Shown here piece by piece: positions 50,296 through 56,173 of a stretch of DNA of 64,000 bases (position 1 is the stretch's first letter; each line of letters starts with the position of its first letter). The position numbers and the translations under genes are program-made. The stretch covers positions 55,347 through 119,346 of the forward strand of contig NZ_DATCTO010000012.1 in the NCBI RefSeq assembly GCF_036567905.1, given 5' to 3'. This DNA comes from Candidatus Binatus sp. Its GTDB lineage: Bacteria > Desulfobacterota > Binatia > Binatales > Binataceae. The notes under the pieces are model-generated. The model was given only the letters and a program-made list of their open reading frames with translations. It did not search any database and was not told the origin of the DNA.

Positions 50296-51735
50296 TCACC
50301 CGGCGAGCCTTGCGCGCAGGATATCGTTGATCACTTTCGGATTTGCCTTCCCGCCCATCGCCTTCATCACCGCGCCGACGAAAAATCCGAACAGCTTGTC
50401 GCGTCCCGCGCGATACTCGGCGACTTTTTCCGGCTCCGCCGCCAGCACCTTGTCGCAGGCCGCCGCGATCGCGCTCTCATCCGATACTTGCGCGAGTCCC
50501 AGCTCGGCGATTGTCGCCTCCGCCCCTTCCCCGGATTTCACCATCGCGGCAAACGCGGTCTTCGCGGCATTCAGGCTTATCTTCTGCTCTTCGACCATCC
50601 GCAGCAGCGCGCCGACCTCGCGCGCCGGCGGCGCCGCTTCGACGAACGACTTGCCTGAGTCGCGCGCGACGCGCAGCACTTCGCTCATCACCCAGTTCGC
50701 CGCGCTCTTGCGATTCTTGAGTCCGGGCAGCGTTGCTTCGAAGTAGTCGGCGACGTCGCGGTCGGCGATCAGCACGCCCGCCTCGTATTCCGTCAGGCCC
50801 AGTTCGCGCACGTAGCGCGCCTTCCGGTCAGCCGGCAGTTCGGGCATCGAAACGCGCACCTTTTCCACCATTTCGGCCGGAACAATCAGCGGCGGCAGGT
50901 CCGGCTCGGGGAAATAGCGATAGTCATTCGCATACTCTTTCGAGCGCATCGGGCGCGTTTCCTTGCGCGCGGGATCCCACAGATGAGTCTCCTGCGCGAT
51001 TTTGCCGCCCGATTCGACAATAGCTATTTGGCGTCCGACCTCATAGTCAATTGCGTCTTCGACGAAGCGGAAGGAGTTGAGATTCTTAATCTCAGTTCTG
51101 ATGCCATACTCCTTCGCGCCGCGCTTGCGGATCGACACGTTGCAATCGCAGCGGAAGCTGCCTTCCTCCATCTTACCGTCGGACGCATCGACGTATCGAA
51201 GTATCGCGCGCAGTTGGCGCAAGTACGCGCCTGCGTCCTCGGCCGAGCGCAGGTCGGGCTCGCTGACGATCTCGATCAGCGGCACCCCCGAGCGATTGAA
51301 ATCGACCAGGCTGGCGTTTTCGCCGTGGATGTTCTTGCCCGCATCTTCCTCGATATGAATTCGGGTGAGCCCGATTCGGCGCGGCTCGCCATTGTCAGCC
51401 GGCGGCAAATCGATATAGCCACCTTTGCAGATGGGAGTTTCGTACTGACTAATCTGGTAGCCCTTGGGCAGATCGGGATAGAAGTAGCTCTTTCGATCGA
51501 AAATAGAATAGGGCGCGATCGCGCAATGCGCCGCCAGCCCGGTTCGAATCGCGAGCTCCACCACGCGGCGGTTGAGGACCGGCAGCACGCCGGGCATCCC
51601 CATGCACACCGGGCAGACGTTTTCATTGGGTCCCGCGCCGAAAGTCGTCGAGCATCCGCAGAACAGTTTCGAGCGGGTGAGAAGATGGGTGTGGACTTCG
51701 AGTCCGATCACCGCCTCGTATGCTTCCCGATTCAT
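50296..51735 (-). CDS. gatB: Asp/Glu-tRNA(Asn/Gln) amidotransferase subunit B
   Basis: VIGLEVH, FDRKSYFYPDLPKGYQISQ, HIEEDAGK, DYRYFPEPDLPP. Confidence 0.98.
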   Translation of the reverse strand: MNREAYEAVIGLEVHTHLLTRSKLFCGCSTTFGAGPNENVCPVCMGMPGVLPVLNRRVVELAIRTGLAAHCAIAPYSIFDRKSYFYPDLPKGYQISQYETPICKGGYIDLPPADNGEPRRIGLTRIHIEEDAGKNIHGENASLVDFNRSGVPLIEIVSEPDLRSAEDAGAYLRQLRAILRYVDASDGKMEEGSFRCDCNVSIRKRGAKEYGIRTEIKNLNSFRFVEDAIDYEVGRQIAIVESGGKIAQETHLWDPARKETRPMRSKEYANDYRYFPEPDLPPLIVPAEMVEKVRVSMPELPADRKARYVRELGLTEYEAGVLIADRDVADYFEATLPGLKNRKSAANWVMSEVLRVARDSGKSFVEAAPPAREVGALLRMVEEQKISLNAAKTAFAAMVKSGEGAEATIAELGLAQVSDESAIAAACDKVLAAEPEKVAEYRAGRDKLFGFFVGAVMKAMGGKANPKVINDILRARLAG

Positions 51736-51797
51736 CGCAATTATCCGTCAGAGCGCGCGTGTGACGCTAACACACAGCGGATAGCGAAGGCGACTGT
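51736..51797. repeat. Cassette-junction repeat, copy A (52-bp core 51746-51797)
   Basis: CGTCAGAGCGCG(c)GTGTGACGCTAACACACAGCGGATAGCGAAGGCGACTGT matches 53522-53573 at 51 of 52 positions. Confidence 0.95.
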
Positions 51798-51799
51798 CT

Positions 51800-52912
51800 C
51801 TACGATCCCGCCGAGGTCCGATGTTTTATCGGTGGACGATTTAGCTCGACTGGCTCCTCGTTTACTTGACGATAATACTCATCGGGTTCCTGCCCATACG
51901 AAAGCCGCGCTTTTGCAAGTTTCGCCACGACCGGATCCGAATCGGCGGCGAGATCCTTGAGATCCGCCATCGCCTCGGGCGTGCCTATATAGGAGAGAAT
52001 GACCGCTGCCCTCACCCGCTCGTTGGGATCGCTGTTCTCTGAAGCCTTGATGGCGTCGCTCATGGTGGCGTCTGAGTGTATGCCAAGAAACGCTTCGGTT
52101 TTTGCGGCTTCCACTCGCTCACAGTCATAATCCGAATCAGGTGTGGGGGCAGGGGCTGCGGCTGGCGATGAAGATGCGGCGGGAGCGGGAAACAATGCCC
52201 CTCCCCCCATCGAATGATCGTTCGAAGAATTGGCGAAAGACCCAGCCGGGGGAACCGGAACCATCGCCGGCTGAGGCGCTGGCGTCTGGCCAGCCGCCGG
52301 CGCTTGCGCCTCTTCAGCGCCGGAGGAACTAGCGGCGATCTGCTTTTTCAGAGACTTGAGATGCTGCTCGTAATATCCTTTGTACTGGCTGCTTACCTCG
52401 GTATAGCCGCCGCCCCTCCAGGCGAAGATCATAGGCCATTCGGCGTCGCATCCAAGGCGCCGGCTTTCAGAGGGCGCCAGCGGACCATATAGGACCAGCT
52501 CGAGATTGCCGTCGTGCTTGATATCCTGGATGCTGTCGCGAAGATTTTCCGTTGAATTGGCGAAGGTTGAGTAATGTTCGAAACCGGATGACGTCTTATC
52601 GAAAATTTCGGTCCCCTCGCACCCTGCCGTAGCGCCAACATCGATCACAACAACTAAGGAAAGGTTGCCGGAGTGGCGCAAATCCGCGAAGCGAAAGTCG
52701 CATACGTGGCCGAAGCCATTGCGAAACGGGCCGCTCACGAATGCCCATACAGCATCTGCCGGGGGTGAATTCGACGCCAGATTGTGAGCGCTTTTAACCG
52801 ACCAATCGGCCGTCGCCAGGTTAGGCTTAGCAGCCGAGGTTTGGGCCCATCCGGCTAAGGATAGTAGGCACGCCGAGCAAAACGCGACAACAACGGCTGC
52901 TATCTTGTTCAT
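51800..52912 (-). CDS. Secreted hypothetical protein (FG-GAP/VCBS-like motifs, Pro/Ala linker, C-terminal HEAT-like repeat); paralog of 53611-54693
   Basis: Signal peptide MNKIAAVVVAFC...GWA-Q; FADLRHSGNLSLVV, IQDIKHDGNLELVL; RVRAAVILSYIG...LKDLAADSDPVVAKLA. Confidence 0.8.
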   Translation of the reverse strand: MNKIAAVVVAFCSACLLSLAGWAQTSAAKPNLATADWSVKSAHNLASNSPPADAVWAFVSGPFRNGFGHVCDFRFADLRHSGNLSLVVVIDVGATAGCEGTEIFDKTSSGFEHYSTFANSTENLRDSIQDIKHDGNLELVLYGPLAPSESRRLGCDAEWPMIFAWRGGGYTEVSSQYKGYYEQHLKSLKKQIAASSSGAEEAQAPAAGQTPAPQPAMVPVPPAGSFANSSNDHSMGGGALFPAPAASSSPAAAPAPTPDSDYDCERVEAAKTEAFLGIHSDATMSDAIKASENSDPNERVRAAVILSYIGTPEAMADLKDLAADSDPVVAKLAKARLSYGQEPDEYYRQVNEEPVELNRPPIKHRTSAGS

Positions 52913-52929
52913 GGAGTGTTTCATTATTG

Positions 52930-53511
52930 CTAGCATTTCTTCTTCTGGCATTGTTTAAGGTTAATGGGAGGATCTGGTGATGGTGGCGTTCCAGTGCACG
53001 TAGAGGTGGACCCGCCAGGCGGAGCAGTATTACGGACGCCTGCTACATAGCAGACACCGCAGTAATTCTTGGCCGTATTAATTTCCCATTGCCACTGTAC
53101 TGAGCACGTGGTCTTATCCGTCACCTTCCCAGAGCATTGGGGGGCGTAGTATTGCGCAGATTCTACTTTTCCTGGATGAGGACCGTATAATTCCAGCGCC
53201 ATCTCTTCCAACTGACATCTAGTCAGGTCTGGTGGCATTGGAGCGTAACTAGTTTGCATACCGACAGCAAAGGCATCCGCCGTGTTCAATGCGTTCTGAA
53301 ACACGCCTTGAACACCGTCCTGCGTATTTTGCAGCCAATTCCAGGCATCTGGTTGAGAGACCGGAACCTGCATTAGGCCGATGTGCGATCCCGCGGCTGA
53401 TTTAGGTTTTTTGGTCGGCAAGCTCTCGTTAGGCCAAGAATCAATTATGCCGTACGGTGCCCTAGGCGATTTTGCAGGCATAAAGAACTGTTCATAGGTG
53501 CTTTCCTTCAT
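52930..53511 (-). CDS. N-terminally truncated, Cys-rich, lysozyme/lytic-transglycosylase-like domain (putative orphan effector)
   Basis: ES motifs (residues 3-4 and 29-30), GLMQV, 8 Cys, no signal peptide, in-frame TGA four codons upstream of the ATG, lower GC than the flanks. Confidence 0.55.
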   Translation of the reverse strand: MKESTYEQFFMPAKSPRAPYGIIDSWPNESLPTKKPKSAAGSHIGLMQVPVSQPDAWNWLQNTQDGVQGVFQNALNTADAFAVGMQTSYAPMPPDLTRCQLEEMALELYGPHPGKVESAQYYAPQCSGKVTDKTTCSVQWQWEINTAKNYCGVCYVAGVRNTAPPGGSTSTCTGTPPSPDPPINLKQCQKKKC

Positions 53512-53573
53512 CGCAAACGCGCGTCAGAGCGCGAGTGTGACGCTAACACACAGCGGATAGCGAAGGCGACTGT
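53512..53573. repeat. Cassette-junction repeat, copy B (52-bp core 53522-53573)
   Basis: Near-identical to 51746-51797. Confidence 0.95.
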
Positions 53574-53610
53574 GCTTGCGATACCGCCGCTGACCCCGCG
53601 CGAACCCAGA

Positions 53611-54693
53611 CTACTTCGGCGGCGAGCCGGCAGGCGGCGGCTCAGCCTCCTCCCGCTCGATCATGTTCAGACGCGGCCCTCGCCCGGCGAATCCAAGATA
53701 GACATTTGCGCCAGCTGCAACAACTCGATTCGGATCGCGGCTCAAGGTCCGCAACTGTTCGACTGCATCTGGTGTCCCTATATCTCCCAGCACGCTGGCG
53801 GCAAACTCTCGCTGGTATGGGTTGTCGCTGTCCGCCCACTTTATCGCATCGGCCATCCCAGCATCCTTATCGATGCCTAGAAAGCGTTCGATCTTCGCGG
53901 CTTCCGCCTTGGCGCAGTCCAGGCTTCCGGTGAGTGTGACGGCTGGTGAGGCCGCTGGCGACGGAGAAGGCGGAGGTGCGGGGACGACTTGTGCGGCCCC
54001 AACCCCGTTCGAAGAAGCTGGCGAAGACTCCGTGGTAGACATTCGAGTTATCAGAACCGGAATCCTGTGCGCCACAGACCCCGGCGTTTGACTAGCCGCC
54101 GGCGCTTGCGCCTCTTCAGAATGAGCGGCGATCTGTTCCTTCAGCGCGGCCAGCTCCTGCTCGTAATAGCTTGTGTACTGGCTGCTCACGTCGGTGTAAC
54201 CCTTGCCGGTCCAGGCATAGATTACGGGCCAAATGGCTACGCAGTGCATGGCTCCCAAGTAGGAAGTGAACTCCGTGGCCACTACCAGCTGGAACTGGCC
54301 GTTTCCCGCCAAATCTCTGACTTCCCAAGAACCCGGACGCGCAGGGGCAGCATAGCTCTCGAACCCGGACGGCGTTTTGTCAATTACCGATAGCTGGCAG
54401 TTCCTACCGTCTGAATAGGAAACAACTAATGACAGATTGCCGGAGTGGCGCAGGTCAGCAAACTGAGACGAGCATATGCCGAGTTGAAAAAGCTCGCCAC
54501 CGTCGGTGATCTCGTGAAGAAAGGCCAGCACCGCGTCATCGGACGGAGGATTGCTCGCCAAGCTATGCGGCGAGTTGACTGACCAATCGGCCGAGCCCAA
54601 GTCGGGTGGCGGAGAAGCCGTCTGGGCCCATCCGGATGACGATGATAGGCAGGCCAAGCAAAACGCTAGAACAACGGCTGTTATCTTGTTCAT
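53611..54693 (-). CDS. Secreted hypothetical protein (FG-GAP/VCBS-like motifs, linker, HEAT-like repeat); paralog of 51800-52912
   Basis: Signal peptide MNKITAVVLAFC...GWA-Q; FADLRHSGNLSLVV, VRDLAGNGQFQLVV; REFAASVLGDIG...LRTLSRDPNRVVAAGA. Confidence 0.8.
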   Translation of the reverse strand: MNKITAVVLAFCLACLSSSSGWAQTASPPPDLGSADWSVNSPHSLASNPPSDDAVLAFLHEITDGGELFQLGICSSQFADLRHSGNLSLVVSYSDGRNCQLSVIDKTPSGFESYAAPARPGSWEVRDLAGNGQFQLVVATEFTSYLGAMHCVAIWPVIYAWTGKGYTDVSSQYTSYYEQELAALKEQIAAHSEEAQAPAASQTPGSVAHRIPVLITRMSTTESSPASSNGVGAAQVVPAPPPSPSPAASPAVTLTGSLDCAKAEAAKIERFLGIDKDAGMADAIKWADSDNPYQREFAASVLGDIGTPDAVEQLRTLSRDPNRVVAAGANVYLGFAGRGPRLNMIEREEAEPPPAGSPPK

Positions 54694-54700
54694 TGGTTGC

Positions 54701-54722
54701 CGCAAATGTCGGTCAGAGCGCG
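54701..54722. repeat. Junction motif CGCAA-N6-GTCAGAGCGCG containing the gatA stop codon
   Basis: Same 16 fixed bases and the same spacing at 51736-51757 and 53512-53533. Confidence 0.85.
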
Positions 54723-56173
54723 GGGGTGCGCGGCTTGAATGCTCCCGTGCGCTCGAAGGCGTCGCCCGCGCGCAGGAGTGTTTCCTCGGCGAACGGCGGC
54801 GCGATCAATTGCATCCCAATCGGCAGATTATTCGAATCGTGGCCGCACGGAATCGACATCCCCGGCAGACCGGCCAGGTTGACCGAAATCGTAAAGATGT
54901 CCGACAGGTACATCGTCAGCGGATCGTTCATCTTCTCGCCGATCTTGAACGCGGTGGTCGGCGCAACCGGCGTGACGATCAAATCGCACTGCTCGAACGC
55001 GCGCTCGAAGTCGTTGCGAATCAGCGTGCGCACCTTTTGCGCCTTCAGATAGTAGGCGTCGTAGTAGCCCGCCGAGAGTGCGAAGGTGCCGAGCATAATG
55101 CGGCGCTTGACCTCGGCGCCGAAGCCGTGCGCCCGCGTGGTTTCGTACAGCGCGATATTATCCTCGGCGTTGACGCGCAGGCCGAAGCGGATACCGTCGT
55201 AGCGGGCGAGATTGGCGCTCGCCTCGGCGGTCGCGACCAGGTAATACGCCGCGATCGCGTAGCCGGTGTGCGGCAGCGAGATTTCGACGGTCGAGGCGCC
55301 CAGAGATTCGTAGCTCTTGAGCGCGGAGCGCACCGACTGTTCGACTTCGGGCTGCATCCCTTCGACGAAATATTCCCGGGGCACGCCGATTCGGAGTCCC
55401 TTGACGCTGCCCGTCAGCGCGCGTTCGTAGTCGGGCACCGGACGCGCCGAGCAAGTCGAATCGCGAGCGTCCTTGCCGGCCAGGGTGCGGAGGATTATCG
55501 CGGCGTCGCGCACCGATCGCGCAAACGGCCCGACCTGATCGAGCGACGACGCGTATGCGATCACGCCGTAGCGGCTGACGCGGCTGTAAGTCGGCTTGAT
55601 CCCGACCACGCCGCAGAACGACGCCGGCTCGCGAATCGATCCGCCGGTGTCGGTGCCGAGCGCACCCAGGCATTCGTGCGCCGCGACCGCGGCGGCGGAT
55701 CCGCCCGACGATCCGCCGGCGACGCGCGCGGTATCATGCGGATTCATCGTCGGCCCGAACGCGGAGTTCTCGGTCGAGGAGCCCATCGCGAATTCATCCA
55801 TGTTCGTCTTGCCGACGAAAACCGCGCCGTCGGCGCGCAGGCGCTCGATCACGGTCGCGTCAAACGGCGGCACGAACGTCTCGAGGATTCGCGACGCGCA
55901 GGTCGTGCGAATGCCTTTGGTCGCGTAAATATCCTTGATGCCGAGCGGAATCCCGCATATCGCCGGCGCGTTGCCCGCGCCGAGGCGAGCGTCGGCCGCG
56001 CGCGCCTGCTCGAGCGCCTCCTGCTCGCATACCGTGATGAACGCGTGGAGCCGGGGCTCGGCGGCGGCGATGCGGTCGAGGCAATCGCGCGTCAACTGCG
56101 TCGCGGTGATTTCGCGCGCGCGGAGCTTCGACGATGCGTCGGCGATTGTAAGTTTGTTCAGTTCCGATGCCAT
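54713..56173 (-). CDS. gatA: Asp/Glu-tRNA(Asn/Gln) amidotransferase subunit A
   Basis: [68 protein letters not shown]. Confidence 0.98.

Follow-up and report, generated by a model that had tools for sequence, protein, structure and literature searches.

A truncated gene with SLT/GH23-like features and its partner genes at the gatA-gatB junction of Candidatus Binatus

The window analyzed here is the whole stretch of 64,000 nucleotides (nt) from a soil Candidatus Binatus sp. genome (contig NZ_DATCTO010000012.1), and the element under study is a minus-strand open reading frame of 193 amino acids (aa), ORF193, located between gatA and gatB. ORF193 is probably what remains, at the 3' side, of a gene that encoded a Sec-exported, SLT/GH23-like protein of about 550 aa; the cut lies at an 8-nt microhomology, and next to it stands an intact partner gene that is probably protective. 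It starts with an ATG and stops at 52930-52932. On the minus strand, 53512-53526 reads TGA-CGC-GCG-TTT-GCG and continues with ATG-AAG-GAA-AGC (stop-R-A-F-A-M-K-E-S); the frame cannot be extended upstream because of the in-frame TGA four codons 5' and because none of the intervening codons is a start codon. The translation contains E3-S4, W26-P27-N28-E29-S30 (WPNES), G45-L46-M47-Q48 within KSAAGSHIGLMQV (residues 37-49), and eight Cys. The highest 12-residue hydropathy in its first 60 aa is only 0.88, and ORF193 is therefore without a signal-like segment. Its GC content (third codon positions in parentheses) is 0.509 (0.515), versus 0.657 (0.84) for gatA and 0.615 (0.76) for gatB. A spacer of 17 nt separates its stop from the ATG (52912) of the next gene, P383, whose product begins MNKIAAVVVAFCSACLLSLAGWAQ (MNKIAAVV...). 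The initial annotation, made from the letters alone, had reported a 193-aa frame at this position, right after junction repeat B, closed upstream by the TGA, without signal peptide, with eight Cys, ES at residues 3-4 and 29-30 and a GLMQ-containing stretch, more AT-rich than the gat genes and 17 bp upstream of a periplasm-targeted gene; our measurements agree with it on all these points.

Truncation of ORF193 and anatomy of its junction

In exhaustive HMMER searches with ORF193, 257 cluster representatives matched at E<=1e-3 (best intact protein, E=6e-46), which identifies it as a genuine coding sequence rather than a chance frame. ORF193 has no match in Pfam, NCBIfam, PHROGs, or PDB sequences, and the same searches with its intact homologues and the family profile returned nothing meaningful. 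The best intact homologues (529, 548, 419, and 608 aa) align to ORF193 residues 1-186 at their own positions 310-590, residue 1 mapping to about position 310-350 of homologues of 480-610 aa. The domain ends at most 40 aa from the C-terminus in 154 of 155 listed homologues (ORF193's own gene call being left out). Complete domains preceded by at least 200 aa were found in 62 homologues, mostly of 400-600 aa, and 39 of these 62 have a signal-like hydrophobic start, for example, MIKNWLKPWLRACAVVCAIASAVFNLFFLAPNVYA; some of the shorter family entries may derive from short metagenome contigs. These data support the earlier proposal that ORF193 corresponds to the C-terminal domain of a larger secreted protein whose N-terminus was lost, and they do not show the family as one of stand-alone proteins of this length.

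The point of truncation can be placed within the domain. In intact proteins, about 45 conserved residues precede the position at which ORF193 starts (T-G-I...I-x-x-Q-L-x-x-L-Y...T-x-x-L-M-T-Q-I/V-A-M-K-E-S-x-Y-x-Q-F). In the alignment of 116 complete domains, numbered here after the domain of locus L007, L52 and E60 are invariant (116/116), A57 is found in 108 of 116, and positions 58 and 59 are most often M and K, so that A-M-K is the modal reading at the joint. ORF193 begins at family M58, six residues past L52, and the preceding Ala codon is also present (...F-A-M-K-E-S). Missing are the N-terminal region of about 300 aa seen in intact homologues, the signal peptide, the invariant L52, and the L-M-T-x-I-A helix before ES, while every invariant residue of the retained part is kept and the frame is fully open. 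ORF193 is the sole copy of the domain in this 97%-complete genome, in which there is no full-length gene. On sequence grounds, it is a pseudogene or gene relic, truncated and devoid of the parts needed for location and catalysis.

Short forms of the gene were also observed elsewhere. SLT-like frames of 257-268 aa in L008 (5779-8421, genome G007) and L010 (1452-3193) have a complete catalytic-type domain and neither the N-terminal half nor a signal peptide; the one in L010 is followed by one P383-like (P-like) gene and that in L008 by two in tandem, and they may be relics or a natural short form. The 375-aa protein P0032, from a 1472-nt Logan contig, matches both ORF193 (residues 81-184) and P383 (50% coverage), which may reflect read-through of the short spacer or a gene call that fused its two sides.

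The order on the minus strand is gatC, gatA, P364, repB1, ORF193, P383, repB2, gatB. The features that matter for the junction are as follows.

54713-56173, minus strand: gatA, the upstream flank of the insertion hot spot
54701-54728, no strand assigned: original gatA stop plus spacer (CGCGCTCTGAC-N6-TTGCG), a 28-nt partial third copy of the junction motif
53611-54693, minus strand: P364, a P383 paralogue (about 43% identity), candidate orphan immunity gene
53507-53589, no strand assigned: repB1, which reproduces in degenerate form the 3' end of gatA, the spacer between gatA and gatB, and gatB's first 5 nt
53507-53514, minus strand: microhomology GCGATGAA, 8 nt, reading GCG-ATG-AA both in the gatB start (TTGCG ATG AAT) and in the A-M-K codons of the SLT-like gene
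52930-53511, minus strand: ORF193, a 5'-truncated relic that retains the A-M-K-E-S motif through the Cys-rich tail
51800-52912, minus strand: P383, cognate partner of ORF193, candidate periplasmic immunity or inhibitor protein
51731-51813, no strand assigned: repB2, the second junction copy, directly before the true gatB start, in a variant that matches the close relative L108
50296-51735, minus strand: gatB, the downstream flank, whose start region is the duplicated part

repB1 and repB2 form an 83-nt direct repeat, 87% identical with a 39-nt exact core, which is present in full at these two places only in the 3.4-Mb genome, besides the partial copy of 28 nt at the gatA stop. In degenerate form, the repeat reproduces about the last 55 nt of gatA plus the spacer. 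Within it, TTGCG-ATGAA corresponds to the 5 bases before the start codon and the first 5 bases of both gatB and ORF193. From CACAC to ATGAA, repB1 is identical to the repeat preceding gatB in the relative G005 and in locus L067. Rfam gave no match over the repeats, and there was no excess of terminators; a known RNA element was dropped as an explanation on these grounds, and a genome-wide REP element in view of just two full copies in the genome.

Because the genome was assembled from a metagenome in 103 contigs, and the region holds a long repeat with an exact core, we considered that two strain variants of the gatA-gatB site had been joined wrongly at the repeat. This is highly improbable. 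A contig of the separate Logan assembly of run SRR2029816 (1797 nt, recorded in three samples) is 100% identical to window positions 51768-53564 and covers repB1-specific bases, the joint, ORF193, P383, and the start of repB2, so that the repB1-ORF193 joint is not an artefact of this assembly. The joint itself has just 8 nt in common with gatB, which is too short to mislead a k-mer assembler.

Comparison with relatives shows that insertions recur between gatA and gatB in this Binatus genus, which makes the junction a hot spot. Most genomes of the genus have a spacer of 12 nt there (...GGTCTGAC-GGACGCTGGCG-ATGAATCGG), and such an empty site is also found in relatives with 96-99% identical gatB. 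The G005 and L067-L070 contigs carry gatA, a remnant of the SLT tail, one P-like gene, a repB1-type repeat, and gatB. P0186 is the P-like protein of a widespread set of Candidatus Binatus contigs with a single gatA-gatB insert, indexed in 55 collection blocks, from which 24 contigs were read. In the G005/P0186 set, the tail remnant before the P-like gene spans about 35 codons (...GTSPLPDPPTTLVCSGC, vs ...CSGTSPLPDPPTGLSCKGC in true tails). In L108, whose gatA is 98% identical, the left junction is as in the window; on the right, a remnant of about 180 nt from the 3' end of a P383-like gene is left, and a repB2-type repeat comes next. The L108 insert is a mosaic P-like gene plus this remnant, and that of the window consists of two P-like genes plus ORF193. 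Across the gatA-gatB junctions compared (window 50296-56173; L021-L034, L067-L070, and L108), each insert ends with a degenerate copy of the gatA 3' end. The gatA match in L022 (genome G002) is split in two (27-680 and 682-1488), the pieces adjoining with an offset of one base, which points to a frameshift in this essential gene or to a sequencing error. When metagenomes were scanned for the repeat core, two contigs only were retrieved, both with P-like genes and neither with a full-length enzyme gene.

Judged from these sequence matches, the window carries a G005-type unit (P364, repB1, ATGAA) joined at GCGATGAA to a resident-type unit (SLT-like gene, P383, repB2, gatB). A joint of this kind is characteristic of recombination that is anchored by homology at one end and by microhomology at the other. 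We propose that partner-family cassettes would be exchanged between strains at this hot spot, by recombination anchored by homology on one side and resolved at the 8-nt microhomology on the other. A copy of the gatB start region would thereby have been joined to the middle of the SLT-like gene, ORF193 borrowing the start codon of gatB. Either the truncated unit would have arrived, anchored in gatB, or the P364 unit would have arrived, anchored in gatA, and deleted the head of the resident enzyme gene. L108, in which the newer cassette appears to have eaten into the older one from its 5' side, gives a mild hint in favor of the latter. The truncation, the junction anatomy, and the empty and single-insert sites are observed; the direction of the recombination is what we infer from them.

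Likeness of the domain to SLT and GH23 enzymes

We aligned with hhalign the 116 complete family domains against 27 genuine SLT domains (Pfam model) from Binatus and related genomes. The score was 25.4 (P=0.006), a value reached by none of 150 column-shuffled SLT alignments (mean 12.1, standard deviation 2.5, maximum 22.4), the reversed alignment scoring 12.7. L-M-T-x-I-A-x-x-E-S is paired with L-v-x-a-L-x-x-x-E-S of SLT, G-L-M-Q-V with G-L-M-Q-L, and, colinear with these, A-W-d-W-x-x-N-x-x-d-G with the SLT motif d-P-x-x-N-x-x-x-G. Under permissive settings, the alignment extends colinearly, placing M-A-L-x-L-Y-G over A-A-Y-N-A-G and G-V-x-Y-V-x-x-V over E-T-R-x-Y-V-k-k-V. In the family ES, which hhalign pairs with the SLT ES, the Glu is present in 116/116 domains and the Ser in 112/116; ORF193 keeps it as E3-S4 without the preceding L-M-T-x-I-A helix. 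The initial annotation had put forward E3 and E29 as residues to mutate; with this invariant helix missing, E3 is unlikely to work as a catalytic Glu. In GLMQ (ORF193 residues 45-48), the G is found in 116/116 domains, and L, M, and Q in 106, 95, and 92 of them, respectively. About 30 inserted residues separate ES from GLMQ; among them, W-P is invariant and a Glu nearly so (112/116), at positions 87-90 of the L007 domain, equivalent to ORF193 residues 26-29. Ordinary SLT domains are without this W-P-x-E insert, whose Glu could supply a second carboxylate, as in hydrolytic lysozymes.

The Pfam SLT model (PF01464) matched neither ORF193, nor ten long homologues, nor 19 domain sequences (the latter even at E<=1), and a search with the family profile against PDB sequences came back empty. 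The AlphaFold model of ORF193 has a mean predicted local distance difference test (pLDDT) of 72, with residues 1-57 below 50 (predicted disordered), and Foldseek found no match for it in the PDB. That of the intact domain has a mean pLDDT of 62 and is poor (below 50) from ES to GLMQ; its 12 Foldseek matches in the PDB, built on this weak model, were all non-significant, seven of them being goose-type (g-type) lysozymes, with ostrich g-type lysozyme at the top (E=3.2, TM-score of 0.34 normalised by target length). Goose-type lysozymes belong to GH23. Against a viral structure library, the intact-domain model gave noise only. The lytic-transglycosylase likeness put forward by the initial annotation is thus upheld by motifs and profiles (ES, GLMQ, W..N...G; P=0.006) and not by a Pfam SLT match or by the structural check, which yielded no significant lysozyme fold match for either the relic or the intact domain. 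Taking both kinds of evidence into account, we regard a GH23-like fold of the family domain as likely, and an enzymatic activity of the family is suggested by its conserved residues.

Partner genes, their context, and the present role of the fragment

The P383 family combines a signal peptide, a D-L-R-H-S-G-N-L-S-L-V block, an FG-GAP-like D-L-N-G-D-G-x-x-E-L-I (block motif D-x-x-x-D-G-x-x-E-L), and W-P-x-I-Y-x-W-x-G-x-x-Y-x-D-V-S, followed by a variable Pro/Ala-rich linker and a HEAT-like C-terminus; one homologue is annotated as "HEAT repeat domain-containing protein" [Candidatus Binatus sp.]. All aligned P-like proteins, and several full-length enzyme homologues, start with a Sec-type signal. 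A P383/P364 homologue directly follows the SLT-like gene in 9/9 fetched loci with downstream DNA (L004, L006, L007, L008, L009, L010, L011, L065, and L071), at distances which, where read, go from overlapping to about 25 nt, and L008 and L006 each have two P-like genes in tandem. At the 3' end of ORF193, shortly before the P383 start, there is a sigma-70-like promoter match (ATGCCA-17-AATAAT, minus strand, 52923-52951), a consensus match only. The identities of ORF193 to the enzyme domain and of P383 to the partner, for each locus, are the following.

L071: ORF193 to enzyme domain 51%, P383 to partner 63%
L064: ORF193 to enzyme domain 53%, P383 to partner 58%
L065: ORF193 to enzyme domain 48%, P383 to partner 56%
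L007: ORF193 to enzyme domain 43%, P383 to partner 45%
L006: ORF193 to enzyme domain 46%, P383 to partner 41%
L009: ORF193 to enzyme domain 36%, P383 to partner 30%
L008: ORF193 to enzyme domain 38%, P383 to partner 33%
L011: ORF193 to enzyme domain 37%, P383 to partner 28%
L004: ORF193 to enzyme domain 31%, P383 to partner 24%

The two identities fall together across loci, and P364 tracks much less well, which indicates that ORF193 and P383 are one inherited unit. The downstream gene had already been singled out as the partner of ORF193, and conserved synteny in nine loci together with this co-divergence speaks for it.

The partner genes are also found where the enzyme gene is decayed or absent. 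The P364 type stands alone between gatA and gatB in many Binatus contigs, and among 24 same-genus genomes besides the window's own, P-like genes are present in 12 and the enzyme domain in 3. Decayed enzyme genes beside an intact partner include an open fragment of 206 aa (148 aa from the first Met) in L064, a 35-aa fragment in L106, a split gene in L006, and a tail of about 35 aa in G005 and L067, to which can be added L008 and L010, where the enzyme gene lacks its N-terminal half. Because immunity-like genes outlive and outnumber the enzyme genes, the pattern is that expected of toxin and immunity; the tandem P-like genes and the lower GC of the insert count on the same side, and we lean, on the gene content of these loci, toward a secreted peptidoglycan-degrading toxin with a periplasmic immunity protein. 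With the same slight preference, P383 and P364 would be inhibitors (immunity proteins) of secreted SLT-like enzymes of competing strains. The selected elements at the locus would then be the intact P383 and P364, and not ORF193, and placement in an essential operon would give them constant expression.

Upstream of the enzyme gene, a large gene for a secreted protein with NHL/SBBP repeats (beta-propeller-like) is found in L007 (1844-4891), L065 (1306-3294), and L071 (459-3287), and in fragmented form in L006 (5192-7150). Its position suggests a three-gene module; the gene is absent from the window. Near full-length modules, we also noted further genes of conflict type, encoding a TIG-domain protein and an RHS/YD-repeat protein (L065, 7862-11071) and an ApeA_NTD1-HEPN protein (L071, 6883-8376). 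A wider proposal, which we put forward tentatively as one possibility, is that of an undescribed three-part antagonism module in soil Binatia, made of the NHL-repeat protein, a Sec-exported GH23-like toxin with the W-P-x-E insert, and an FG-GAP/HEAT immunity protein; gatCAB might in that case act as a constitutive "immunity-gene trap" in which genes are swapped by microhomology-assisted recombination, with ORF193 as a capture scar. The literature searched contained no description of the family or of such a system in Binatia.

As to what ORF193 does now, we think it rather likely that it is an inert relic. No intergenic terminator-like site was found between gatA and gatB; from its position in the gatCAB operon and the copied gatB initiation region, ORF193 is probably transcribed and possibly translated. 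Having no signal peptide, its product cannot get to peptidoglycan, and having no helix to hold the catalytic-type Glu in place, it cannot cut it either. The protein would stay in the cytoplasm, with its eight Cys reduced. An independent gene call starts ORF193 at M11, in which case the ES motif is lost altogether. That the frame is intact and its residues are conserved agrees with a recent event, the relatives with nearly identical gatB having an empty site.

Several observations weigh against the reading of ORF193 as the relic of an exported SLT/GH23-like enzyme with a protective partner. The position colinear with the AYNxG motif reads M-A-L-x-L-Y-G-P, without Asn. No Pfam or PDB sequence match backs the putative lysozyme-like fold, and both AlphaFold models are poor over ES to GLMQ. 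The search for a donor-type locus, in which gatA and gatB would flank a full-length SLT-like gene, brought up none, the nearest P383 homologues sitting in other contexts. An open frame with all invariant residues could mean selection rather than a recent event, and Sec-type signals on both proteins would let enzyme and partner meet in the producer's own periplasm. The last point fits an accessory cell-envelope remodelling enzyme with a periplasmic regulator or scaffold (or a three-gene set with the NHL-repeat protein), of which ORF193 would still be a relic and P383 and P364 partnerless regulators. No dedicated secretion or lysis gene was seen in the fetched loci, and housekeeping SLT enzymes with partner proteins are common, so that we grant this alternative a real, if clearly smaller, chance. 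It accounts less well for the patchy distribution within one genus, the retention of partner genes where the enzyme gene is decayed or absent, the tandem partner paralogues, the foreign composition, and the three ordinary SLT genes already present in the window genome.

A selected cytoplasmic protein using the translation start of gatB, whether for binding of muropeptides or precursors or for translational coupling to P383 and gatB, would agree with a frame intact over 193 codons, with the conservation of all invariant residues of the retained part, and with an operon that must be transcribed through to gatB. We find it improbable. The eight Cys and the Pro-rich tail of ORF193 are what one expects of a protein outside the cytoplasm, disorder is predicted for its first 57 residues, and the M11 gene call would leave the ES motif out. 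No stand-alone form like it occurs at the gatA-gatB site of the relatives, and chance would suffice to keep the frame intact if the event is as recent as the empty sites of close relatives allow. Still less credible is a model built on the initial annotation, in which ORF193 is a stored orphan C-terminal toxin module of the Rhs, contact-dependent inhibition (CDI), or VgrG type, kept with its immunity gene and re-joinable to a full-length delivery gene. It draws on the headless C-terminal domain directly before a conserved partner gene and on the RHS-repeat gene about 4.8 kb downstream of one full-length module (L065). The position expected of an immunity gene is seen as synteny only, in the nine loci with a P383-like gene directly downstream. 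The genome has no other copy of the domain, hence no main gene for recombination, and the truncation falls inside the catalytic domain rather than at a module boundary. Among the ten long homologues scanned with Pfam, none has a delivery domain (Rhs/YD, PAAR, VgrG, TPS/FHA, LXG, and similar), nine having no Pfam domain at all and the tenth TSP3 plus LTD, and a Sec signal sequence opens several of the full-length homologues. Residues 40-330 of the L071 protein, used as the query of a search sensitive only to relatives with exact 5-residue words in common, retrieved just four proteins, all of 547-575 aa, and no alternative C-terminal toxin domain was found on the same N-terminal region; the two that were checked, P0018 and P0222, carry the same C-terminal domain. 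The expectation of full-length proteins with this domain at their C-terminus is therefore correct, and the expected Rhs or VgrG linkage is not seen by Pfam in the ten; the strict polymorphic-toxin model fails, with no delivery domain in those ten, no alternative C-terminus retrieved by that search, and no full-length gene in the genome. ORF193 is most likely an inert leftover, not an orphan toxin tip kept in store.

By itself, such a dead gene fragment is ordinary and of little weight, and its significance lies in what it points to: an unannotated family (the 257 representatives retrieved above) whose invariant residues suggest a divergent lysozyme/SLT-type glycosidase, and a conserved, co-diverging partner family with immunity-gene-like genomic behavior. 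Both families are new, but of a known sort, a cell-wall glycosidase and a periplasmic partner. We know of no cultured representative of the phylum Binatota. The locus is also a clean natural case of an essential operon, gatCAB, serving as an insertion hot spot, in which a foreign gene fragment received its start codon through an 8-nt microhomology. Should the toxin and immunity reading be true, the pair would provide peptidoglycan biology with a new enzyme and inhibitor, and soil metagenomics with a marker of strain-level warfare.

Comparison with known systems

The closest likeness is to family-1 lytic transglycosylases and GH23 (PF01464; the C-domain of Escherichia coli Slt70; goose-type lysozyme), with which the family has in common a Glu-Ser ending a conserved helix, G-L-M-Q, and a W/D-x-x-N-x-x-x-G helix, and, under permissive alignment, an A-x-x-Y-x-G-like motif followed by Y-V-x-x-V, in the same order. 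It differs in falling below every Pfam threshold, in the W-P-x-E insert of about 30 residues between ES and GLMQ, in having A-L-x-L-Y-G for AYNxG, and in an extra Cys-rich beta-hairpin and a C-x-G-T-x-P-x-P-D-P-P tail. A fold in common with GH23 is likely.

Pesticin with its partner Pim and other secreted muramidase bacteriocins also have N-terminal non-catalytic domains, a C-terminal lysozyme-like domain, an adjoining gene for a periplasm-targeted protein, and a strain-variable occurrence. There is no sequence relationship, however: pesticin has a T4-lysozyme-type domain and its gene is plasmid-borne. In the present loci, the partner measures about 280-390 aa and combines FG-GAP-like with HEAT-like parts, and the gene usually found upstream encodes a large NHL-repeat protein. 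The glycoside-hydrolase pairs of type VI and type IV secretion systems (T6SS and T4SS; Tge/Tgi, Tse3/Tsi3, VgrG3/TsiV3, and Xanthomonas X-Tfe/X-Tfi) are likewise made of a cell-wall glycosidase and a periplasmic immunity protein, and their immunity genes outnumber and outlive the effector genes and form arrays. Those effectors are without Sec signals and are linked to secretion-system genes, whereas several of the present proteins have Sec-type signals and no T6SS or T4SS gene is nearby.

For the junction, the nearest parallel is homology-facilitated illegitimate recombination, known from naturally transformable bacteria, which combines one homologous anchor with a microhomology of 3-10 nt. 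The window has the same elements, namely a long homologous flank (gatA or gatB), another end at an 8-nt microhomology, and a duplicated piece of the anchor region, with the difference that the process is here deduced from the sequence of its product.

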